From Candidatus Scalindua sp. (lineage in GTDB: Bacteria > Planctomycetota > Brocadiia > Brocadiales > Scalinduaceae): a DNA stretch of 32,000 nt. Position numbers and translations under genes: made by a program. The stretch lies in contig JALDRA010000001.1 in assembly GCA_031316235.1 (NCBI GenBank), forward strand, positions 3,690,001 through 3,722,000, written 5' to 3'. This document shows, piece after piece, positions 3,943-32,000 of the stretch. The stretch's first letter is position 1. Each line of letters opens with the position of its first letter. A model generated the notes under the pieces. The model had not been told where the DNA came from, did no database searches, and saw only the letters and a list, made by a program, of their open reading frames with translations.

Positions 3943-4015
3943 ATCTTGGTTGCAGTCATACTCGCTCAAATTTATCTCGTATTTTATCCGGAAACCATTA
4001 TGAGATGGGTATAGT
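3943..4015. repeat. intergenic repeat family, copy A
   Basis: ATCTTGGT..ATACTCGCTCAAATTTATCTCGTATTTTATCCGGAAACCATTATGAGATGGGTATA. By hand alignment ~50/56 identical to copy B (13072-13143). Confidence 0.65.
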
Positions 4016-4313
4016 ATAATTTTTCCGAGTAGCCGGAATCGTAACTTATACCATACTGAAAGGTTTCTTTTCAATATAATTTGAAAATGGATACCCGTTT
4101 TGGCTTGGCATTCATGTACTTATCCGTTGACATTATTTAAATAAATTGATACTATCAAAGTCTATGTCACCCGCATAGTTCTGAGACTTTATCCTTCTGG
4201 TATTACACCCGTTTTTCAAAAGTTTCCAAGAGAAAATAAGCAGACTTTGCTTGGTTTTTATGCCTAATTTCATAATTTTCAGTTCTAAATGACACAAAAA
4301 TTTTTCTAAGGGG

Positions 4314-11986: not shown

Positions 11987-12161
11987 TCGCTGGTGCAATA
12001 GTTAGCGATTATCTGGTGAGATGTTGACGAAGAGATGAACAGTAACAGTAGCTATACTCAAACGATTCGATTTTAGAGGTATCCAAAAACGAAGGCCTGT
12101 TTGCTGGTATCCCCGGACCAGATGCCGAGGACTTTCCCCTGACAAAAAGGGCCGAGGACTT

Positions 12162-12216
12162 TACTCGCTCAGCTTTTTCTCGGATTGCATCCGAAAGCTA
12201 TTATAAGATGAGTATA
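12162..12216. repeat. intergenic repeat family, copy C
   Basis: TACTCGCTCAGCTTTTTCTCGGATTGCATCCGAAAGCTATTATAAGATGAGTATA. By hand alignment ~46/56 identical to copy B. The central hairpin TCGGAT-nnn-ATCCGA is retained with a different loop. Confidence 0.6.
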
Positions 12217-12240
12217 TTTTCAGATCAAGGCAATTTTGGA

Positions 12241-13071: not shown

Positions 13072-13143
13072 ATCTTGGTGAAGGTATACTCGCTCAATTT
13101 TATCTCGGATTTTATCCGAAATCCAGTATGAGATGAGTATACC
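13072..13143. repeat. intergenic repeat family, copy B
   Basis: ATCTTGGTGAAGGTATACTCGCTCAATTTTATCTCGGATTTTATCCGAAATCCAGTATGAGATGAGTATACC. It has an internal 6-bp hairpin TCGGAT-TTT-ATCCGA and partially complementary outer arms TACTCGCTCA / TGAGATGAGTA. Confidence 0.65.
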
Positions 13144-13188
13144 ATAGTTCTCACGGTAAAAATTTTTCAGAGTATCAATAATTAAAGA

Positions 13189-22609: not shown

Positions 22610-22683
22610 GGGCGATTAGCTCAGTTGGCTAGAGCACTTGCTCGACAAGCAAGGGGTCACTGGTTCGAGTCCAGTATCGCCCA
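22610..22683 (+). tRNA. tRNA, anticodon loop TCGACAA = Val(GAC)-like; integration target of the downstream island
   Basis: Cloverleaf by eye: acceptor GGGCGAT/ATCGCCC, D-arm GCTC-AGTTGGCTA-GAGC, anticodon arm CTTGC-TCGACAA-GCAAG, variable loop GGGTC, T-arm ACTGG-TTCGAGT-CCAGT, discriminator A. CCA is not encoded. Confidence 0.8.
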
Positions 22684-22711: not shown

Positions 22712-23773
22712 TTAGATATGTTTTGAAACCTCTTTTCTCTCCACTGTAGTCAAATTGTAGTCAACTTTTTCCAAAACCTTTACACAACCCCTTAAACTGT
22801 CAGGACAATGGTGTGCATAGCGTTGTGTCATTTTCATGTTTTTGTGACCAAGCAGCTTTGAAATTGAATAGAGATCGACTCCATTCCGGGTTAACCTGGT
22901 TGCAAAAGTATGACGCAGACAGTGAAAAGTAAAATCCCTTATCCCGGCTTTCTCTAAAGCATAAGCAAATGCCCTGATAAGGTTGCGTTTAAAAATCTTT
23001 GTTCCTGCATTACTAGAAAATACTAAATCGTTTTTGATATTTCTTACCTTTTCACCAGACTTCTTTTGAAGAACACCCAACGCAATACTATTTAGGGGCA
23101 AAGTTTTCGGTTTACCATTCTTTGTCTCTTTAATGAGTATAGTTTTACGGAATAAATCCACCCGAGACCATTCAAGAGAAAGTAGTTCATCCTGCCGAAG
23201 TCCTGTATTTAGACCAAAGATGATTATATCCCTAAGCCAAAGGGGGGAAGCATCAAGAAGCCTTCTTTCCTCGTCTTCTGTCAGCCAACGATCGACCTCA
23301 TTGTCCTCTTTCTCTTTTTGCACTTTGGAAACAGGGTTATCTTTTAGCCACTCCCACTCCTTAACCGCTAAATTGAAAGCCTTTGAAAGCATATAAAGTT
23401 CACGGTTAATGGTAGATGGGCTTGCGCCCTTATCTCTCCGATATACTTTATATGGAGCAATTACCTTTGGTGTTATAGAGCTTAAAACCTGGTTACCAAA
23501 GAAACTACCAAGATTTTTTAAATAGTAGGTGTATGCTTTCCGGGTATTAACTGATACTGTTGGGGCATACTCCTTCATAAACTTCTCCATCATATCGTTG
23601 AAAGTTTTCCTGCTGCTAATGGGCTTCTCTAAATACTTATCTTCAACAAGTTCAGTCCTTATTTTTGCCTCTATTGATTGAGCAAGTTTCCTGTCGGTAG
23701 TCTCAAGGCTCTTCTGAATCTTTCTACCATTATGTCTAATACACGTCCACCAAACACCACTTCGTTTAAACAT
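22712..23773 (-). CDS. int: tyrosine-type site-specific integrase
   Basis: Catalytic C-terminus HCLRHTFATRL...LLGHKNMKMTQRYAH (H-x-x-R...Y). A strong SD GGAAGGAGG lies 5 nt upstream of the ATG at 23773. The ORF is also open to 23827, where an ATG would overlap the xis stop as TAATG. Confidence 0.9.
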   Translation of the reverse strand: MFKRSGVWWTCIRHNGRKIQKSLETTDRKLAQSIEAKIRTELVEDKYLEKPISSRKTFNDMMEKFMKEYAPTVSVNTRKAYTYYLKNLGSFFGNQVLSSITPKVIAPYKVYRRDKGASPSTINRELYMLSKAFNLAVKEWEWLKDNPVSKVQKEKEDNEVDRWLTEDEERRLLDASPLWLRDIIIFGLNTGLRQDELLSLEWSRVDLFRKTILIKETKNGKPKTLPLNSIALGVLQKKSGEKVRNIKNDLVFSSNAGTKIFKRNLIRAFAYALEKAGIRDFTFHCLRHTFATRLTRNGVDLYSISKLLGHKNMKMTQRYAHHCPDSLRGCVKVLEKVDYNLTTVERKEVSKHI

Positions 23774-23826
23774 TTGTACCTCCTTCCCCGAAGCCTGATT
23801 GTGTCTGTATGACGCTATCGGAATCA

Positions 23827-24072
23827 TTATATACCATTACCATGAAGGTCTCCAAGGATTTTATTAGCAGTCTTTTCTTGTTGATTGAAAGAACATTTGA
23901 GACTTCCCATAAAGGAATCGATCTCTTTTAAATCAAATAGCCTGCGTCGACCGATCTTGATAGAAGGAATCCTACCCTGACTCGCCCATTCATATAATGA
24001 CTTTACTGGTAAACTTGTGTAGGTAGACAATTCTTTTATGTTTACATAACGTTTAGGCATATTTTTTATCAT
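23827..24072 (-). CDS. xis: excisionase-family (HTH_17/MerR-like) DNA-binding protein
   Basis: 81 aa. YVNIKELSTYTSLPVKSLYEWASQGRIPSIKIGRRRLFDLKEIDSFM matches the excisionase-type helix-turn-helix. The gene lies immediately upstream of int. Confidence 0.75.
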   Translation of the reverse strand: MIKNMPKRYVNIKELSTYTSLPVKSLYEWASQGRIPSIKIGRRRLFDLKEIDSFMGSLKCSFNQQEKTANKILGDLHGNGI

Positions 24073-24127: not shown

Positions 24128-24160
24128 ATACTGTACACCCCCTGTACTTTAGTACCTTGT
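24128..24160. repeat. direct repeat DR1 (promoter/operator-like), upstream of xis
   Basis: ATACTGTACACCCCCTGTACTTTAGTACCTTGT next to an alternating-AT tract. It matches DR2 at 28103-28137 (30 identical positions, 3 substitutions, one 2-nt indel, by hand). Confidence 0.7.
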
Positions 24161-24179: not shown

Positions 24180-25025
24180 TTAAGTATAGTTGTCTGTTGT
24201 TATAAGCTCTACATCACGTATTAACTTAGCTAAACAGAATTCATCGGAGTTCTGTAAATTTCCATTTTTTATCCACTTTAGAATCATATACAACCCCATA
24301 ATAAAAGCCCCTCTAAAACATGCTGTTAACGTTTTATTTGATTCATGAATATCTTCCAAAAATATTTGAATTAACAGCTTTATAGGATAGGAAATGCGTG
24401 TTTGTATCCAGCACTTTTCATTGTTATTTCTAGAAATGCTTTTAAAATCAAATATTTCATTCCTATCAATTCTGTAGTCTAACGAATCGCATAAGTCCTT
24501 AATTGTCTTTGGCACATCTAATTGAATTCCATTTGTTTTAATTGGTTTTACATCTATTTCAGCACCAAGCATTAAGTTGAACTTATTACTACCGTATTTG
24601 TTTACTACTTCTTCAAGTTTTTTGATAGCTAATGGATACTGTCGCACTGGAATCACTCCATCAAGCACATTAGAGAATTTTTCTCTAGTATGCTTAGTAC
24701 TCGCATATTTTGAATCCTTCATGATTTTTATAATTTGGCCATCCCTTATATTATGTTTCTTTGCCAAACCTATTGTACCAATACAAATTGCACCTTTTGC
24801 CAAGCTGTACTTCTCCATGTTAAAGACTGGAAGCAGTTTTTCTGCTATAACATAATCCCATTCGGACACACAAAAATTTGTTTTAATTGCTTTATTATTG
24901 CCACCATCCCATCCCACTAAATCAAAGAACATGTCCGGGGATATCTCATTTTCAACGCCTTTGTAGAAACCATGTGGTATATTCTTCATTCCTGTTATCG
25001 TGTTGCTATTTCCTGGCATAGCCAT
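24180..25025 (-). CDS. hypothetical protein (281 aa), no recognisable family
   Basis: Long ORF with SD GGGAGG ~8 nt upstream of the ATG at 25025. It is the most AT-rich gene in the window. No motifs recognised. Confidence 0.6.
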   Translation of the reverse strand: MAMPGNSNTITGMKNIPHGFYKGVENEISPDMFFDLVGWDGGNNKAIKTNFCVSEWDYVIAEKLLPVFNMEKYSLAKGAICIGTIGLAKKHNIRDGQIIKIMKDSKYASTKHTREKFSNVLDGVIPVRQYPLAIKKLEEVVNKYGSNKFNLMLGAEIDVKPIKTNGIQLDVPKTIKDLCDSLDYRIDRNEIFDFKSISRNNNEKCWIQTRISYPIKLLIQIFLEDIHESNKTLTACFRGAFIMGLYMILKWIKNGNLQNSDEFCLAKLIRDVELITTDNYT

Positions 25026-25084
25026 TTCTCAGATACCTCCCATCTAATTTTATGTTATAAATATTAAAGTAAGTACAGTTTGCT

Positions 25085-25300
25085 ATTTAAAGGGGCGCTG
25101 CCCCTCGTCGCTCACTTCGTTCGCTCCTCACCCCGGAGTTTTCTCCACCAGAGGCACCAGTCCCTCTCAACGCATCCTATTTTTTATATCCAGCCAACGG
25201 AGACCGTGCCTCTTGGTGTCGCAGGTTGCTCTCCAGCATTGCCTGCTCTAAGTTTTAGCCTCCGCTGGCTTGTAATTATTGCTTACGCATTTTTATAAAA
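25085..25300 (-). ncRNA. candidate structured non-coding RNA (GC-rich patch between Zn-ribbon gene and 281-aa gene)
   Basis: No credible ORF, and clearly more GC-rich than the flanks. Helices by eye: 25192-25200 with 25262-25270 (9 bp; one position is G.U only on the minus strand); 25146-25157 with 25206-25218 (12 bp + 1 bulge, crossing the first helix); GGAG-TTTT-CTCC (25135-25146); a terminal hairpin AGGGGC-GCT-GCCCCT (25091-25105) followed on the minus strand by TTTAAAT. Confidence 0.3.
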
Positions 25301-25356
25301 TGAACGTAGAAAAGAAAAAAGTTGTGTTTAATGTGGAAATATACAGTCAATTCAAA

Positions 25357-25376
25357 TTGCTCCACTGCTAGAGCAA
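25357..25376 (-). terminator. weak terminator-like hairpin after the Zn-ribbon gene
   Basis: TTGCTC-8 nt-GAGCAA, followed on the minus strand by TTTGAATT. The stem is short and the U-tract poor. Confidence 0.25.
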
Positions 25377-25402
25377 AAAGCCTCGGTAAATTCCGTCATT
25401 TT

Positions 25403-25615
25403 TTATATAAGATTATGGATGTTTCCTTTCCCTCTATGCCCTGGGATCTTACCAAACCTATAAGGATACAAAGGGCAATTCAGACTTTCACATTTCTTTA
25501 CCTCAGATGTTGACCAGTTAAAGCACTCAAGGCATTGATACCTGATAGCCTTAAGTGGTGTTAATAATACTTCTTTTGTCCCACCATCTTTTGATTGTAT
25601 TACGTGTTTAATCAT
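25403..25615 (-). CDS. small Zn-ribbon protein (CxxC...Cx4C, CPLYPYRFGK motif)
   Basis: 70 aa. The QCLEC...KKCESLNCPLYPYRFGK pattern is common in small phage/island proteins. Its start overlaps the upstream HTH gene stop by ATGA. Confidence 0.65.
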   Translation of the reverse strand: MIKHVIQSKDGGTKEVLLTPLKAIRYQCLECFNWSTSEVKKCESLNCPLYPYRFGKIPGHRGKGNIHNLI

Positions 25616-25818: not shown

Positions 25819-25876
25819 TCCATTTCCTCCTTATAAAGTAATCAAGAATAAAAATTAACCCTTATACTAAACATGC

Positions 25877-25914
25877 GCTACTTTTGAGGTAGCGATCGCT
25901 ACTTTTGGGGTAGC
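25877..25914. promoter_or_regulatory. tandem palindromic operator upstream of the HTH/Zn-ribbon operon
   Basis: GCTAC-TTTTGAG-GTAGC GATC GCTAC-TTTTGGG-GTAGC. The junction GTAGCGATCGCTAC is itself a perfect 14-bp palindrome. The site lies ~60-95 nt upstream of the ATG at 25818, followed on the minus strand by TAGTAT/TATAAG -10-like boxes. Confidence 0.55.
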
Positions 25915-26021: not shown

Positions 26022-27155
26022 TTAGAGTTTCCAGAGTATAGGCTTCTCTGGTTTATAAGAACAATAGGTTCCTATAGTGAGATTGGAAGTGAAGTGTTTC
26101 CAAAGAGAGGGATGATCATTCCTGATTTTATTAAGACTGGTATTGACAGCCTTAGAGACTGCTTTTCGTGCTTTTTCAGCGTCACCTGGAAAATCCCTTG
26201 GACGCCCATTGTTATCTGTTCCGGCACTAAGTGCTTTCTTGATTTGTTCCATTTTATTTACAATTTTAGCTATACTTACATCGCTTTTTGGGATTTCATC
26301 ATCTTCGAGTTCAGCATTGAGGTCATCGTATCTTTTTCGGATGCTTGTAATATATTCTGTGTCCACCATTGCGTCTCTTCTTTCTATCTCTGTTAATGAA
26401 ACCCTATTTTTGATTAAATCTGTTAACTTAAGAACGTGGAATTCTTGTCCAGGAGTTTTCAATAGGAAATATATATATTCCAAACCTTTCATATGTTTAA
26501 GCTGGATGGGTTTATTATCATAAACGATATCCCAGTAATCACCACCACTCTTCCTCCTAAATACATTACCTTTTAGCAATTTCTCATCTGCATACGATGC
26601 CTTTGGTTGCAAGTGTTTGATTTTCTCACTTTGGGCCAGGGACAATAAAGCAGTTGCATCATGTACTTCGTTATTTAGGCTAGGGTCTCTTGATGACTCT
26701 CTGTCAATTATCATTCTTTTAAGTGCATCATGTGCTCCCATGATTGCAAGAATTGCCAAGATGTGATAGTCTTCGATTTGTTTGCCTAGTGTTGGTTTGG
26801 CATTATCCTTAACTAAGCTTATAGCTCTTTCATATCCGTCACGAAGAGTGCTTTCTGGATAACCTTGGTCATAATCTACAAGACTGTTTATTACTTCAGG
26901 ATATGTATCAGCGATAGATCGTGCAGACGCTAATTTTTGTTGCAAGTCTTCATTGTCTCCTGTTGGATAGAAGTTTGATGAAACACCTGAATGGCTACAA
27001 GTATATTTAATGTCCCATATTTCTCTTGCATCCGTTATAACATTCCAACAACTGTATATTGGATGACCCACACATGCTCCTCCGCTAAATAAGAATCCCA
27101 ATAACGGGCACCAATCACTTGCGATAAACTTTTTATATAACTCTTCACTTACCAC
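26022..27155 (-). CDS. hypothetical protein (377 aa): unknown N-terminal domain + C-terminal winged-helix-like domain of an uncharacterised widespread family
   Basis: GTG start with SD GAGGGA. The C-terminal half carries FRRKSGGDYWDIVYDNKPIQLKHMKGLEYIYFLLKTPGQEFHVLKL ... AEKARKAVSKAVNTSLNKIRNDHPSLWKHF..IGTYCSYKP. I recall this pattern from many unannotated bacterial proteins. Confidence 0.7.
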   Translation of the reverse strand: MVSEELYKKFIASDWCPLLGFLFSGGACVGHPIYSCWNVITDAREIWDIKYTCSHSGVSSNFYPTGDNEDLQQKLASARSIADTYPEVINSLVDYDQGYPESTLRDGYERAISLVKDNAKPTLGKQIEDYHILAILAIMGAHDALKRMIIDRESSRDPSLNNEVHDATALLSLAQSEKIKHLQPKASYADEKLLKGNVFRRKSGGDYWDIVYDNKPIQLKHMKGLEYIYFLLKTPGQEFHVLKLTDLIKNRVSLTEIERRDAMVDTEYITSIRKRYDDLNAELEDDEIPKSDVSIAKIVNKMEQIKKALSAGTDNNGRPRDFPGDAEKARKAVSKAVNTSLNKIRNDHPSLWKHFTSNLTIGTYCSYKPEKPILWKL

Positions 27156-27195
27156 TTATCATCCCTCTAAAATGACAACCCTCTATAAATAAAAT

Positions 27196-27236
27196 GGTGG
27201 GCAGGCTGTAGAGGACAGCTTTTCGGGGAGCTCACC
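27196..27236 (-). promoter_or_regulatory. structured 5' leader hairpin (terminator/attenuator-like) just upstream of the 377-aa gene
   Basis: Outer stem GGTGGGC/GCTCACC encloses the inner hairpin GCTGT-AGAGG-ACAGC. On the minus strand it is followed by ATTTTATTTAT and then the RBS. On the plus strand the inner hairpin is followed by TTTT. Confidence 0.3.
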
Positions 27237-27253
27237 CTAGCCCAGATGTACTT

Positions 27254-27282
27254 ATGATATAATTGTGCTTTTAATATGTCTA
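27254..27282 (-). promoter_or_regulatory. putative sigma70-type promoter of the 377-aa gene
   Basis: The minus strand reads TAGACA, a 17-nt spacer, then TATCAT (5/6 and 5/6 matches to consensus). This implies a ~90-nt leader. Confidence 0.4.
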
Positions 27283-27465
27283 GTTTTATTAAAGCAGTTA
27301 GATGCAGAATGCCTCTCAGGTATAACTCAAGCCCATTCTAACCATTCAAATCAGGCATGAATACCTCTGCCTATAAAAACGACAAACATGCCTGTATGGC
27401 CTAATCTGGTCTGTTCTATGCTCTCGCACTCCATATATCATGAGCAATTCATTATAATTTATAAC

Positions 27466-27513
27466 GAAATTTGTCTGAATGGTCCGGCTGTATGGACGAA
27501 TCAGACAAATTTC
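27466..27513. repeat. perfect 13-bp inverted repeat (long stem-loop)
   Basis: GAAATTTGTCTGA (27466-27478) / TCAGACAAATTTC (27501-27513) with a 22-nt loop. The loop can extend the helix through GTCC (27482-27485) / GGAC (27494-27497). Confidence 0.7.
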
Positions 27514-28102
27514 ATGATGAGTTTTTACATGATATTGTAGGAGCCATGAGTAGGTAAGTTACTAGCTATAAGATAATAGCATATTGTGTCGTGTGATACC
27601 TGGGAAGGGTTAGCATAGAAACAGAATTAAAATAAGCTAACTTTTGTAAAACTTGTACGAGATCTATACTTGTTCATGAAAAGGAATGTCTAGTCAGGGA
27701 AATTATAAACTTTTGGTATATAGGCTTATTAGCTTTAGAGATACTATTAGGAAGGTTTATTACTGATCTAATAAAGGGTGTAGACAAAATAACTACATTC
27801 ATATCTACACAAGGAAGAAGATACAGGTAATCAGACAAAACAATATAACCATCATAGATAAGCAACATAATACGTATCAAGAACTATCAGCCTTACATTT
27901 ACACATTTATATAACCTAGACGGGGGGAGTTTCCGGAATGGCGAATTCTTCAGGGAAAATTTTACACGTACGGAATACGGTAGGGGGTGGGGATGAGAAT
28001 AATACGTAGAGTAATACTCTCCCATGACAGACTGGTACCATCTTGAATTATACGTGAATAGGGAGTCCTAAGATTTAGTATATTAATATATATTATATTA
28101 AT

Positions 28103-28137
28103 ATACTGTATACACCCCCTGTACCTGAGTACCTTTT
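28103..28137. repeat. direct repeat DR2 (promoter/operator-like), copy of DR1
   Basis: ATACTGTATACACCCCCTGTACCTGAGTACCTTTT preceded by an alternating-AT tract containing TATAAT-like boxes on the minus strand. Confidence 0.7.
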
Positions 28138-28420
28138 GTATTCTCAATTGATGGTACACCTATACCTTTATTAGATAGTCTATGAGACCAAAGGAATACC
28201 TTGGTTTGATTGTGTGGGTATCTATTGAGGCTATACGTGTGACAGACATATGCCTGTTTTCTGAGGCAGGGGATACCTTTTGATTTGATGAAGTGGTATC
28301 TTGCTTAATCGTGTACTCTTCCGGATGATATAGAAGCCAGCAAACCAGATGTTGCCTATTTTACGTATTAGCATTCTGTTCTAATTTTTTTATTTTTAGG
28401 TGTTGATTTGATCGTTTGAA

Positions 28421-29383
28421 CTATTCCCAATCAGCAAAATCAAGAATATTTTCCAATTGTATTAGATTTAAATGTTCATTGCTTAGTAAATTTTTCCAAA
28501 AAATGTCCCGTTCCTTTTTTTCTCCAGTTCTTTGCCATTCAACGATAAACAATTTTTTTTCATTTCTGCGTTGGATTAGGTTGTTCAAGTGCCGATCTAA
28601 ACCTGAGTATCCAAATAGGATTATCTTGTCAGATTCATCAAAAGCTAACGCTAAATGACGCCAATATGCGCTCAAAATCTTAGAAGACTCGATGATGAGT
28701 GGTTTGTGTTCAAAGTGAGCCAAGACAATATGGCTATCTTTTTCTGGTTTAAGAGAGGCACGGGCATCTCTCATGGTTTTTTCATTGCCCACATACAACG
28801 GCGATCCATGCAAGTGCAGATACCAACCATGTTTATTTACTTTGCGCCTATCTAAGTTTTCTTCGTTAAAACCAGAGCTCGACCAGAAACCATCTATTAA
28901 TGGTCCATTGTAGCCGTCAAGCACGTGATTCTTTGTGAACGCATCATAGAGGAGGTTATCGTAATTTAGTGTCGCTACATGTGATTTGCTTTCATGTATA
29001 AATTTAGCTAATGGAATAATAAAGGAATCAGGAAGCTTGAGATCAGATCGGTGGAAATACAAAGCCACCTCATGAATGAATTTTTTAAATGCAGAAGGTA
29101 ATTGTTTAGCGTCATCGGAAACCCAAGATACACCATGTATTTCAAACTCACAAAGAAATTCTATTGCAACAATTGCATACTGAAGCTTGTCTAGTTCCTG
29201 TTCTGAGCTTGGTGGACGCTTTTCAGATGTTCCTGCGATAGCGCTTTGAATAAGCGCTTTATGTTCCATGCTCAAATAGTCTGTATTGCTCCAGACGCTC
29301 TCTAATCCATTTTGCAACGCAAAATAGTCAGGGTTCATGGCCATACCCAAACCGTTACCCACTATCAACATGGAACGCTTCAC
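28421..29383 (-). CDS. stand-alone SIR2-like domain protein (SIR2_2 / DUF4917 / AbiH-like), putative NAD-consuming defence effector
   Basis: 320 aa with a GTG start and AAGGAAA SD. Motifs in SIR2-like order: LIVGNGLGMA (Rossmann GxG), ATLNYDNLLY (T-x-N-Y-D), YLHLHGSPLYV (catalytic His region), ILFGYSGLDRHL. Confidence 0.65.
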   Translation of the reverse strand: MKRSMLIVGNGLGMAMNPDYFALQNGLESVWSNTDYLSMEHKALIQSAIAGTSEKRPPSSEQELDKLQYAIVAIEFLCEFEIHGVSWVSDDAKQLPSAFKKFIHEVALYFHRSDLKLPDSFIIPLAKFIHESKSHVATLNYDNLLYDAFTKNHVLDGYNGPLIDGFWSSSGFNEENLDRRKVNKHGWYLHLHGSPLYVGNEKTMRDARASLKPEKDSHIVLAHFEHKPLIIESSKILSAYWRHLALAFDESDKIILFGYSGLDRHLNNLIQRRNEKKLFIVEWQRTGEKKERDIFWKNLLSNEHLNLIQLENILDFADWE

Positions 29384-29724
29384 TGCTTTTCCTTTGTATT
29401 AAGTTCTAACAGTTAAATATGAGGACACTATAACAAATGTTTGAAAAATTCCTGAATAACTAAAAAAACCTTCTCTACTATTTTCCACTTCTTTAATTCT
29501 GGCCATGATATTTTTAATAGAGTGGCCTTGGGATGAAGAGCTGAATACTCACCCTTACCCGATTAAACATCATCGTACAAACGAGGTAGACTTAAGCTCA
29601 TACGTTCAATGTATTTTGCCATCCATGTCTTCTTTTGCTTAAACGCTTTGATCGGATTAGAGATCGAAGGGAAAAGATCATGGGGCGTGCCGTGAACGGC
29701 ACTGGCAAATTTACGTTATCCAAG

Positions 29725-30441
29725 TTAGTAACCCCAGTTCGCATGACTCACAGGCAATTTATTTAACTCGGTCTTTAATTGCTTCCAATTCGGCAAATAG
29801 GTATCCATGTAATAAAGGAACCTTTCATTATGGTGCCGCTCTAAAAAATGAGCCATCTCATGCACAATGATATATTCCAGGCAATTAATGGGTTTCTTTG
29901 CCAATTCAAGGTTTAGCCAAATTCTTTTCTTCTCGATGTTGCAGGAACCCCATTTGATTTTCATGAGTTTTACTTGCCAATCACTGACCTTTAAATTCAT
30001 TCGTTTTTCCCAGTTTTCAATAAGTTCGGGAATTATTTCTTTAAGTTCCTCACGATACCACTCTTTCATTATTTCATGCCGTTTGATTATCGGTGTTCCG
30101 GGCCTTACATAAAGGTCTATATAGGTTTTGTTTTTCAATACTACTTTAGGCGGGGCATCTGCTTCAATGATGTTCAGCAAACATCTTCTGCCCTGGAAGT
30201 AATGACTTTCTCTGTCCTTGTATTCTCTTGGTGATACTCTCTCTTGGCCTTCAAATTTACGTTGGTGCCGTTTTATCCACCCTAATTTTGCTATGGTAAA
30301 TAAGCGGATTGCATCTTCATTTACTCCTAACGGTGCAGCAATGCGGACCCTTCCTGTAGGGGGGTAAACAGCAAGGTGTATATTCTTAATGTCTTTACGA
30401 ACAACATCGATTTTAATGTTGCTGATGGTGATTTGCTCCAT
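29725..30441 (-). CDS. DUF45/YgjP-like (COG1451, M48-related) zinc metallohydrolase
   Basis: 238 aa. KWGSCNIEKKRIWLNLELAKKP..LEYIIVHEMAHFLERHH gives the WGSC...HExxH layout. Its ATG overlaps the hsdR stop (TAATG). Confidence 0.85.
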   Translation of the reverse strand: MEQITISNIKIDVVRKDIKNIHLAVYPPTGRVRIAAPLGVNEDAIRLFTIAKLGWIKRHQRKFEGQERVSPREYKDRESHYFQGRRCLLNIIEADAPPKVVLKNKTYIDLYVRPGTPIIKRHEIMKEWYREELKEIIPELIENWEKRMNLKVSDWQVKLMKIKWGSCNIEKKRIWLNLELAKKPINCLEYIIVHEMAHFLERHHNERFLYYMDTYLPNWKQLKTELNKLPVSHANWGY

Positions 30442-32000
30442 TAATAATCTCTTTGATTTTTTACCAGGTCAAAAATTTTGTGGACTTCACTTTCTTCTGT
30501 AATACCGTATTTTTCTAACACTTCCGCAATTGCAAAGCGAACCTCTTTGCTTTTAATTTTATGGTCTCTCCAGCCATCTTTTTTGGTTATAAGGATTGTA
30601 TGGTCTAGTTCGATTGGCAAATCCTCATTTTTGCCAAGGTTGTCATACAAAGCCCTCTTTGCATTTGTATTGAGAGAAGCAGGATATTCGGCTGTTGTGT
30701 CTGGTTTTTTAATCTTTGCTGCAAGCTCAATGATATTCTGCAAGTATTTTTTGTATTCCGAAGCCGCTTCTTTTCTCAGTTTGATTAACTCGTCCAAAAG
30801 CACGCTCATTTTTTCGTAATACATCGGGTTGGTAGGGCTTTCCTCAATGATTACTTTCCTTAGATTATTTTCGATGGTTTCTGCCATTGCATCTTTGTTG
30901 CCTTTGATTCTTTGAGGCAAATCATTGATAATATCCTCTCCTCTTTCAATCAACAATTCTACTAAACTTAAATCATCAAAGTTGGCCAACATTTGACTCT
31001 CTTCTGCTCCGATGTAGCTGTCAATCAAATGACGCATGGCAGGTTCGTACTGTTTTAAATCAACATAGTCACCACTGGCGAGCTGTATTTCCTTACGCAG
31101 ATTTTCAAAGTGTTTGATGTCATTCTTGATTTGCCCGGTTTCCTTTTCGGTGTAACCTGCTTCTTTCATTTCATCGGCTATGCTGGCATAAGCCCGAATG
31201 AGTGCAATAGTGAGCTTATACAAGGCAACCCGTTTTGGTTCGGTGTCTTTTAGTTCGTCAGGATTTTCGGTGTTCCCGCCACAGAAGTAACGAATATAAG
31301 TCAGGGTATCTTTGGGCGGCTCTACCGGTTCGCACAACGCCTTAACGGCTTCCAATGCTTCGTCCAATCGTTCTTTGCCTTTCTTCAAACGGTCTTTGAG
31401 CAAACCTTCCACATCCGCTTTTTCATAAGCATCAAATGCACCAGAAGTGTAATCCACGAATGCGCTTTCAAGACTCTTAAACAAGTCCATGTAGTCGATG
31501 ATATAACCGTAGTCTTTATCATCACCATCTAAACGGTTTACCCTGCAAACCGCCTGAAACAATCCGTGGTCTTGCATATTCTTGTCAATGTATAGATATG
31601 TGGCGGAAGGAGCATCGAAACCGGTGAGCAGTTTGTTTACCACTATCAGTAATTTCATCTGAGCCGGCTCTTCTACGAATTTTGTCTTTACCTCTTTTTC
31701 AAATTGCTCTACCTTGTTAATGGCGGTATCGGGGTCTTCATTAAAATAATCTGCCAGCATTTCCCGGTAAATCTCAAAACGCTGCAATTTCTCGGTATAT
31801 CCTTCGCCTGATTCTTCGCCTTTAATGTCGGCATGGGTGGGGACAAATGATGTGATGATGGCGCAATTCTTCAGACCTGCATTTTGAAATAGTTCATAGT
31901 AACGGCAGGCATTGTAAATACTATCAGAAATCAACATGGCATTGCCTCTGCCATTTTGCAGGCGTTCTTTTTTCTCCATGTCGAGTGTGATGTCCATTAC
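30441..32000 (-). CDS. hsdR: type I restriction enzyme R subunit, C-terminal ~520 aa (5' part outside window)
   Basis: The ORF is open to the window edge. SF2 helicase motifs V-VI are present (LLIVVNKLLTGFDAPSATYLYIDK...LFQAVCRVNRL), followed by the long helical C-terminal domain typical of HsdR. Confidence 0.9.
   Translation of the reverse strand, partial: VMDITLDMEKKERLQNGRGNAMLISDSIYNACRYYELFQNAGLKNCAIITSFVPTHADIKGEESGEGYTEKLQRFEIYREMLADYFNEDPDTAINKVEQFEKEVKTKFVEEPAQMKLLIVVNKLLTGFDAPSATYLYIDKNMQDHGLFQAVCRVNRLDGDDKDYGYIIDYMDLFKSLESAFVDYTSGAFDAYEKADVEGLLKDRLKKGKERLDEALEAVKALCEPVEPPKDTLTYIRYFCGGNTENPDELKDTEPKRVALYKLTIALIRAYASIADEMKEAGYTEKETGQIKNDIKHFENLRKEIQLASGDYVDLKQYEPAMRHLIDSYIGAEESQMLANFDDLSLVELLIERGEDIINDLPQRIKGNKDAMAETIENNLRKVIIEESPTNPMYYEKMSVLLDELIKLRKEAASEYKKYLQNIIELAAKIKKPDTTAEYPASLNTNAKRALYDNLGKNEDLPIELDHTILITKKDGWRDHKIKSKEVRFAIAEVLEKYGITEESEVHKIFDLVKNQRDY

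Follow-up and report, generated by a model that had tools for sequence, protein, structure and literature searches.

Structured RNAs of mobile elements and the locus studied

H-type pseudoknot riboswitches and autogenous ribosomal-protein leaders are pseudoknotted aptamers or protein-binding mRNA leaders, and pseudoknotted motifs with invariant joiners have often proved to be riboswitches, ribozymes or specific protein-binding sites. An intercistronic location inside a mobile element is typical of the twister, pistol, hatchet and hepatitis delta virus (HDV)-like ribozymes. Here we describe an RNA motif of about 180 nt in a mobile island of Candidatus Scalindua sp. (contig JALDRA010000001.1); the whole 32,000-nt stretch of this contig that was analysed is called the window, and coordinates refer to it unless another locus is named. 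The motif lies in a 377-nt gap (25026-25402) that separates a 281-aa open reading frame (ORF) from a 70-aa Zn-ribbon ORF, both on the minus strand. Comparison of homologous loci demonstrates that it is a real conserved structured RNA, present in at least three mobile islands that are only distantly related, and defines its strand, helices, pseudoknot topology and linkage to one gene family.

The same island carries an int-alpA RNA (RF02996), at a distance of 2 kb. Both RNAs are conserved, structured and intergenic, belong to integrase-bearing islands, have no known function and were recognised through covariation. However, comparison of sequence and structure matched the motif neither to int-alpA nor to any other of the 4227 families in Rfam; it is also larger, pseudoknotted and tied to one downstream gene family. 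We classify it as a new orphan structured RNA of mobile elements that belongs to no Rfam family. With riboswitches and protein-binding leaders it has in common the position in a 5′ leader, the strand, conserved junctions, a variable peripheral loop and a pseudoknot, but no ligand, expression platform, terminator or helix sequestering the ribosome-binding site (RBS) was identified, and the downstream gene has no known function that could hint at a ligand. The finding adds a well-defined structured RNA that is supported by covariation and absent from Rfam. The protein family to which it is linked has a confidently predicted structure without any known fold or domain, and the islands concerned bear defence genes (SIR2-like, type I restriction-modification). 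Given what pseudoknotted motifs with invariant joiners have often proved to be, this one gives experimenters a concrete way into a gene family that is otherwise opaque and into the regulation of these islands.

A GC-rich and strongly folding intergenic patch

The first-pass annotation of this DNA had pointed to a stretch at about 25085-25300 that was richer in GC than its surroundings and contained no believable ORF, and both observations hold. The GC content is 54-56% over about 25100-25250 (100-nt windows) and 55% over 25091-25270, as compared to 40% for the whole window. The top GC stretch of the 32 kb is the 191 nt starting at 25082, and no more than 0.06% of stretches of this kind match the value of the patch. 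Even for uncultured anammox bacteria, a patch of high GC content between genes of AT-rich DNA can thus be a useful lead to new elements. When folding was compared with dinucleotide shuffles, the patch gave z = -3.66 on the minus strand and -3.40 on the plus strand, and the minus-strand patch ranked first among 264 tiles of 240 nt (z = -3.95). Folding energy alone is not decisive, because three ORF-internal tiles of the same set come close (z = -3.7 to -3.9).

Every minus-strand frame across the patch in the window is interrupted by stop codons. The sole ORF over it (72 aa, plus strand) has no relative among 5.8 billion proteins, and a tblastn search with six-frame translations of the patch gave only chance matches, both in every fetched locus and elsewhere in the window; the patch is therefore not a gene remnant. 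At gathering thresholds, Rfam 15 recognised only tRNA-Val and int-alpA in the whole window, both outside the patch, and at E<=10 the region 24900-25500 gave chance-level matches far below threshold. The homologous locus L031, described below, had no Rfam match either.

An AT-rich imperfect inverted repeat (25043-25064 / 25289-25310, 22 nt, 77% complementary) flanks the GC-rich motif and was not seen in L031; it could be a chance feature of AT-rich DNA or an outer helix. The patch was also considered as a tRNA or attachment site (att) remnant, and this was rejected because only weak similarity to the T-arm of tRNA-Val and no second att copy in the window were found. A CsrA-sponge role was discarded as well, since by our own estimate the GGA motif count is no higher than base composition predicts.

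The motif is found upstream of 281-aa family genes

Some 25 relatives of the 281-aa protein, distant but full-length, were retrieved by an exhaustive HMMER search. The motif occurs at four loci, one of which (L030) is truncated; it always directly precedes a gene of this family in the same orientation, and the proteins are 25-47% identical. These are the window, L031 (P0028 locus, which comprises L031, L032 and L033; 37% protein identity), L040 (P0031 locus; 25%) and L030 (P0027; 47%). At the P0028 locus a GC-rich stretch lies immediately upstream of the gene, and the DNA of L031 is alignable with the window across the entire patch. L040 has a stretch of 53-58% GC directly upstream on the gene strand, and its 281-family gene is followed by HTH_17 and integrase genes. 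L030 starts only 60 nt before the start codon and opens with ...GAAGCCCCT, which matches the 3′ hairpin of the motif. The motif corresponds to about 2783-2966 in L031 and about 2711-2975 in L040. A MerR-like gene is found further upstream in the window, in L031 and in L040; in L031 the motif begins about 10 nt past its stop codon.

The covariance model (CM) used for searching was built from the window sequence alone (P1 and P2, see Table 1) and run against 184,564 bases of fetched loci. L031 scored 69.4 bits (E = 8e-15) and L040 37.9 bits (E = 9e-7). No other full-length match was obtained in these bases, and only the P2 hairpin was matched in L034 and L035.

Table 1. Parts of the RNA motif and features of the island, in window coordinates (motif parts are listed 5′ to 3′ on the minus strand)
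Feature	Position	Strand	Remarks
Whole conserved RNA motif	25091..25270	-	about 180 nt; 5′ to 3′ from 25270 down to 25091
P1 5′ strand, AGCCAGCGGAGGC	25258..25270	-	partner 25192-25204
J1/2 single-stranded joiner, UAAAACUUAGA	25247..25257	-	sequence conserved
P2 hairpin, GCAGG-CAA-UGCU-GGAG-AGCA-A-CCUGC	25221..25246	-	asymmetric internal loop CAA/A, purine tetraloop
P3 5′ strand, CACCA[A]GAGGCAC	25206..25218	-	partner 25146-25157
P1 3′ strand, GGUCUCCGUUGGCU	25192..25204	-	situated inside the P3 loop
Variable region within P3	25158..25191	-	34 nt in the window, 40 nt in L031, 131 nt in L040
P3 3′ strand, GUGCCUCUGGUG	25146..25157	-	
A-rich linker and CUCC	25135..25145	-	possible 4-bp pairing of CUCC with P2 loop GGAG
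Purine-rich 3′ domain, GGGGUGAGGAGCGAACGAAGUGAGCGACGA	25105..25134	-	
P6 terminal GC hairpin, GGGGC-AGC-GCCCC	25092..25104	-	
Shine-Dalgarno GGGAGG of the 281-aa gene	25036..25041	-	51 nt downstream of P6
281-aa gene, uncharacterised family	24180..25025	-	always directly downstream of the motif
tRNA-Val(GAC), site of the island	22610-22683		
Integrase	22712-23827		
HTH_17 excisionase-like gene	23827-24072		
Conserved element just after the Zn-ribbon stop, GGAAUUUACCGAGG...	25350..25397	-	terminator-like hairpin 25357-25376
Zn-ribbon gene, 70 aa	25403-25615	-	
MerR/excisionase-like helix-turn-helix gene, 68 aa	25612-25818	-	
377-aa ORF	26022-27155		int-alpA RNA just upstream
int-alpA RNA (RF02996)	27180-27247	-	Rfam 39.7 bits vs gathering 35.8
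SIR2_2/Aga_SIR2-like protein	28421-29383		
YgjP-like metallopeptidase	29725-30441		
Type I restriction R subunit	30441 onward		

Covariation, strand and topology

The first-pass annotation had drawn its helices by eye, and all of them are present in the window. It had noticed two that cross, and had proposed collecting the intergenic regions beside 281-aa homologues for a covariation analysis. The outcome of that analysis is positive: the helices are kept by compensatory changes in three independent lineages (window, L031 and L040), which is the criterion for a conserved structured RNA. Its 9-bp helix (25192-25200 with 25262-25270) is contained in P1, which has 13 pairs in the window, two of them G.U pairs possible on the minus strand only. 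Its other helix (25146-25157 with 25206-25218) is exactly P3, in which 12 pairs are interrupted by a single bulged A. The loop closed by P1 holds the P2 hairpin together with the 5′ strand of P3, and P3 in turn encloses the 3′ strand of P1 and the variable loop. Because the 3′ strand of P1 sits inside the P3 loop, the two helices cross and are predicted from the aligned sequences to form an H-type pseudoknot.

P1 is formed by CCAGCGGGAGCC/GGCUCCCGUUGG in L031 and by CAUGG[G]CUUAACUCUC/GAGGGUUAAGCCAUG in L040, where every pair is canonical despite an entirely different sequence. Both sides are changed in 12 of the 13 pairs of P1 and in 3 of the 9 of P2. On the CM alignment, 96.6% of the cells of P1 and P2 are paired and both sides are changed in 15 of 22 pairs; no shuffle out of 500 was as good, and sliding the partners lowered pairing to 33-54%. 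In P3, all cells (100%) are paired between the window and L031, with both sides changed in 8 of 12 pairs; the L031 helix (CGCUU[A]GGGCACG/CGUGCCCAAGCG) retains the bulged A. A further model did not place the L040 P3 across its 131-nt insertion, so this helix was checked by hand, as was P1 of this locus. P3 is found there as AAGGGAC/GUCCCUU, with 7/7 pairs at a position anchored by the flanking conserved segments, and only 5 of the 5411 words of this 7-nt length in the L040 locus pair equally well. In L031, 1-nt insertions are matched between the two strands of P1, and 1-nt deletions between the two strands of P3. Thus the two crossing helices are both maintained among homologues.

The G.U pairs of P1 occur in all three lineages and would be A.C mismatches if the plus strand were read. 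Since they exist on the gene strand only, the sense of the RNA is the minus strand, and the hint taken from G.U pairing in the first-pass annotation was correct.

The joiner J1/2 is conserved (UAAAACUUAGA in the window, UAAAACUUAUA in L031, UAAAUUAGAU in L040). The core of P2 is identical in L031, with the outer pair changed from G-C to A-U, and in L040 an inner pair is changed from G-C to A-U and the loop is GAGG. An unbiased MAFFT alignment followed by RNAalifold recovered all of P2 and part of P1. Downstream of P3, the linker sequence AAAACUCCGGGGU is identical in L031. A GGAG/CUCC hairpin noticed previously (25135-25146) can form in the window, but GGAG-AAAA-CUCC is missing from L031 (GGUAAAAAACUCC) and from L040 and is therefore not a conserved part of the motif. 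The linker CUCC may, tentatively, pair with the P2 loop instead, as GGAG:CUCC in the window and L031 and as GAGG:CCUU in L040 (one covarying event). In the purine-rich 3′ domain, GGGUGAGGAG and CGACGAGGG are common to the window and L040, and GGGGU and AGGGGCAG to the window and L031.

The terminal hairpin P6 lies 29-65 nt before the start codon, the distance being 29-51 nt in L031, L040 and L030. It is kept as GGGGCAGAGCCCC in L031 and GGGCUAGCCC in L040, and L030 begins with ...GAAGCCCC. This GC hairpin, followed by TTTAAAT in the window, could be read as a terminator. The hairpin itself is conserved, but the terminator reading of 25092-25104 was rejected: the sequence after P6 is UUUAAAU in the window, UGAAUUAC in L031, UGGAAAGG in L040 and UAAACAAC in L030, with no U-tract in the latter three, and a terminator scan did not call it. 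A leader continuous with the mRNA is more likely than an independent non-coding RNA gene.

Loci without the motif and distribution of its parts

The closest homologues of the 281-aa gene, at L003 (61%) and L004 (56%), have no patch upstream, and the motif is also missing at L036 and L039. In L003 and L039 the 281-family gene overlaps an upstream small gene; in L003 this is a ribbon-helix-helix (RHH) gene that overlaps the start codon of the homologue. The patch was likewise not found at the loci of Zn-ribbon homologues (L005-L012, L026-L029). The absence from L003, L004 and the Zn-ribbon loci had suggested a lineage-specific insertion, an idea dropped after the HMMER search led to L031 and L040. 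The motif is specific to the 281-aa gene family and, since four loci of the family lack it, optional. Loci in which the gene overlaps an upstream small gene fit an optional regulatory insert.

Wider searches did not add occurrences. No match was obtained by blastn of the window, L031 and L040 patches against phage and plasmid collections. Scanning genomes and metagenomes with a pattern made of the P3 arms (CCAAGAGGCAC...GTGCCTCTGG, the helix found to covary) gave 13 loci, all chance matches, and scanning viral contigs with four patch-derived patterns gave no full motif, only isolated P2-like hairpins. The P2 core GGCAAUGCUG(GA/AG)GAGCAACC was observed in three unrelated IMG/VR contigs: L034 (688-707, minus strand), L035 (8655-8674, plus strand) and L041 (10733-10752, plus strand). 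The core is exact in L034 and L035, where it precedes a terminator-like hairpin to give units that resemble small RNAs of about 90 nt; in L041 the loop is GAGG. These matches may be due to chance, or the P2 hairpin may be a reusable protein- or RNA-binding module.

Two loci showed further peculiarities. The 131-nt insertion inside P3 of L040 (about 2786-2916) holds a second copy resembling the 3′ domain (GGAGCGAA...ACGAGCGGGCAGCG) and looks like an internal duplication of a module. In L031, the palindrome GTGGAATTCCAC occurs twice at 2340-2530, upstream of the MerR-like gene that precedes the motif, and is probably an operator. The gene caller missed this MerR-like ORF (about 2567-2770) and called a spurious 76-aa ORF over the RNA instead, the translation of which has GNAGEQP in common with a minus-strand frame of the window patch.

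The 281-aa protein family

A metagenome-assembled genome of Candidatus Scalindua encodes a hypothetical protein identical to the 281-aa protein, which has no match in Pfam, NCBIfam, PADLOC, PHROGs or PDB sequences. An AlphaFold (AF2) model built on a 25-sequence alignment reached a predicted local distance difference test score (pLDDT) of 88.8 and is mostly helical, as compared to a pLDDT of 33 with a 3-sequence alignment. With this model, Foldseek found no entry of PDB or BFVD at E < 0.1. Members of the family are mildly basic (isoelectric point, pI, 8.2-9.5). A replication initiator was considered and rejected, since no similarity to Rep_O and no fold match were found.

A proposed cis-acting leader and the alternatives

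We consider the chances about even that the motif acts in cis, as a leader or intercistronic RNA through which expression of the 281-aa gene is controlled. The island regulatory operon (the MerR-like gene, with or without the Zn-ribbon gene) would be transcribed through the motif, which would then lie as minus-strand RNA within the 5′ leader or intercistronic region of the 281-aa family mRNA. The folded leader would bind a factor, perhaps a small ligand or a protein of the island, the 281-aa protein included, and thereby set how much 281-aa protein is produced. Transcription, the cis mode of action and the nature of the factor are what we infer. A cis-acting leader is the likeliest reading because position and strand are invariable, because the motif has no terminator of its own and starts right after the upstream cistron in L031, and because it is dispensable where the gene is translationally coupled to an upstream gene. 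Co-transcription with the gene is the simplest reading, since P6 has no U-tract and lies near the start codon and since the L031 motif abuts the stop codon of the MerR-like gene. The complexity of the motif is aptamer-like and its position that of a leader, but no conserved terminator or anti-RBS helix is found among the loci compared.

Several observations weigh against a cis-acting leader. No conserved pairing of the motif with the RBS and no conserved terminator were found in these loci, so that no expression platform can be named; pairing of CUCC/CCUU with the RBS is possible in the window and in L040, whereas L031 does not allow it. No fold could be assigned to the purine-rich 3′ domain. 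The strong sequence conservation of the joiners fits equally well a trans-acting ribonucleoprotein RNA or a ribozyme. The four loci lacking the motif indicate that it is not essential to the gene. Moreover, covariation statistics are thin, with only three independent lineages and one truncated locus, and the alignments used for counting pairs were fitted to the structure.

Alternatively, the motif could be a trans-acting or processed RNA that is cut from the transcript and functions together with the 281-aa protein, whether as a scaffold, a cofactor or an inhibitor resembling an antitoxin. The strict adjacency of the motif to the 281-aa family, the order RNA, hairpin, protein gene, the high sequence conservation of joiners and loops, and the mildly basic character of a family with no known fold all suit such a role, and the RHH gene overlapping the start of the L003 homologue resembles a type II antitoxin arrangement. 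We nevertheless regard it as rather improbable. The four motif-free loci imply that the protein does not strictly need the RNA, which counts against an obligatory guide or scaffold, and no conserved terminator or processing signal was found. The annotation had likened the patch to type III antitoxins, retron non-coding RNAs and guide RNAs, and no defining feature of any of these supports the analogy; as it had itself remarked, no reverse transcriptase (RT), ToxN or TnpB partner is found among the island ORFs. With type III toxin-antitoxin systems (ToxI/ToxN) the locus has in common the order RNA, hairpin, protein gene within a defence-rich mobile island. However, membership of that class is defined by a downstream endoribonuclease of the ToxN/AbiQ/CptN type, whereas the 281-aa protein is not ToxN-, CptN- or AbiF-like, matches no ToxN, Abi or PADLOC family and has no fold match. 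Tandem repeats of about 30-40 nt, as in type III antitoxin RNA, are also missing (TRF gave no array at score >=30, and a repeat search found one 9-nt pair only), the hairpin has no conserved U-tract, and 281-aa homologues exist without the RNA. The retron msr-msd resembles the patch as a structured non-coding RNA with flanking complementary segments in a defence island, but the segments of P1 enclose only P2 and one strand of P3 rather than an msr/msd pair, no RT domain was found in the island ORFs scanned, and there is no Rfam match. As for the omega RNAs, which guide TnpB or IscB and overlap the 3′ end of the adjacent tnpB or iscB gene or the transposon end, no gene for either protein lies nearby, and the patch has no match in Rfam, which we take to include HEARO.

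A new self-cleaving ribozyme or processing element, which would split the regulator cistrons from the 281-aa cistron, is unlikely, even though the pseudoknotted core has invariant unpaired nucleotides, the position is intercistronic inside a mobile element and no Rfam assignment competes. HDV-like nested double-pseudoknot ribozymes resemble the motif in their two crossing helices, loop-inserted hairpins and variable peripheral stem, but, as inferred from the drawn topologies, the order of strands and hairpins differs: P1-[P2 hairpin]-P3-P1′-[loop]-P3′ here, as compared to P1-P2-[P3 hairpin]-P1′-[P4]-P2′. In addition, no ribozyme family of Rfam 15 is matched, 180 nt exceeds the small ribozyme classes and no cleavage site can be proposed. 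Equally hard to favour is a folded single-stranded DNA element, such as a single-strand origin or priming site, with the 281-aa protein occupying a replication slot. The slot after the Zn-ribbon gene is indeed taken in related islands by Phage_rep_O (L026, L029) or by PriCT_2 and AAA_25 (P0009 locus), and the structure is strand-specific, as single-strand origins are; however, the 281-aa model matches no initiator fold, comparison of the protein with Rep_O revealed no similarity, neither iterons nor a gene for a Rep, relaxase or HUH protein were seen, and helices rich in G.U pairs together with a pseudoknot are more typical of RNA. That the patch is a chance GC-rich stretch, the remnant of a degraded gene or a small coding gene is very improbable and is largely refuted by covariation. 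The 72-aa plus-strand ORF spans the patch and the gene caller put its 76-aa ORF over the homologous region of L031, but the former has no homologue, the six-frame translations are unmatched in related loci, and the patches of the three lineages differ by 1-nt indels and paired stem substitutions rather than by codon-like changes.

Going further than the cis-acting leader, a broader view, which we put forward with considerable reserve, is that the motif would be the RNA half of a new two-part module composed of a pseudoknotted RNA and a protein of new fold. The RNA would represent a new class of riboswitch or ribozyme, or would directly bind and control the 281-aa protein. Such a module would direct either the life cycle of a family of small tyrosine-integrase islands from marine bacteria or one of their functions in defence or toxicity.

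Island context and other elements

The island is located at tRNA-Val(GAC) (Table 1). The window contains no second copy of the 3′ end of tRNA-Val, which places the far boundary of the island beyond 32000. The int-alpA RNA is contained in a non-coding stretch of about 1.26 kb (27156-28420), and the SIR2-like, YgjP-like and type I restriction genes that follow (28421-32000) make up the defence cargo of the island bearing the motif.

The element at 25350-25397 separates the upstream regulator genes from the motif. This sequence of about 45 nt (GGAATTTACCGAGG(C/T)TTTT...) is also present at L005 (2695-2740) and L007 (4220-4265), both of which lack the motif. Past this element, Zn-ribbon islands carry different genes (Phage_rep_O, PriCT_2 and AAA_25, or unknown genes). 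Its occurrence in islands that differ in their downstream genes raises the possibility of a conserved terminator or attenuator of the regulatory operon, or of a site in this operon to which a protein binds.

Two tandem hairpins GCTAC-N7-GTAGC, 21 nt apart (25876-25914), precede the MerR-like gene, and a similar pair lies in L004 (about 85-125), about 100 nt upstream of the 281-aa homologue; these pairs look like operators. The sequence AAGGTAC..GTACAGGGGGTGTAC, which contains the palindrome GTACA/TGTAC, occurs at 24134-24158 and at 28111-28135, 3977 nt apart. The copy at 24134-24158 lies between the 281-aa and HTH_17 genes, another was found after the 281-aa homologue in L003 (about 965-990), and the sequence is probably a regulator-binding site. 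Outside the island, three copies of a chromosomal 71-nt intergenic repeat unrelated to it (66-83% identity) were observed at 3951-4021, 12154-12224 and 13079-13149.

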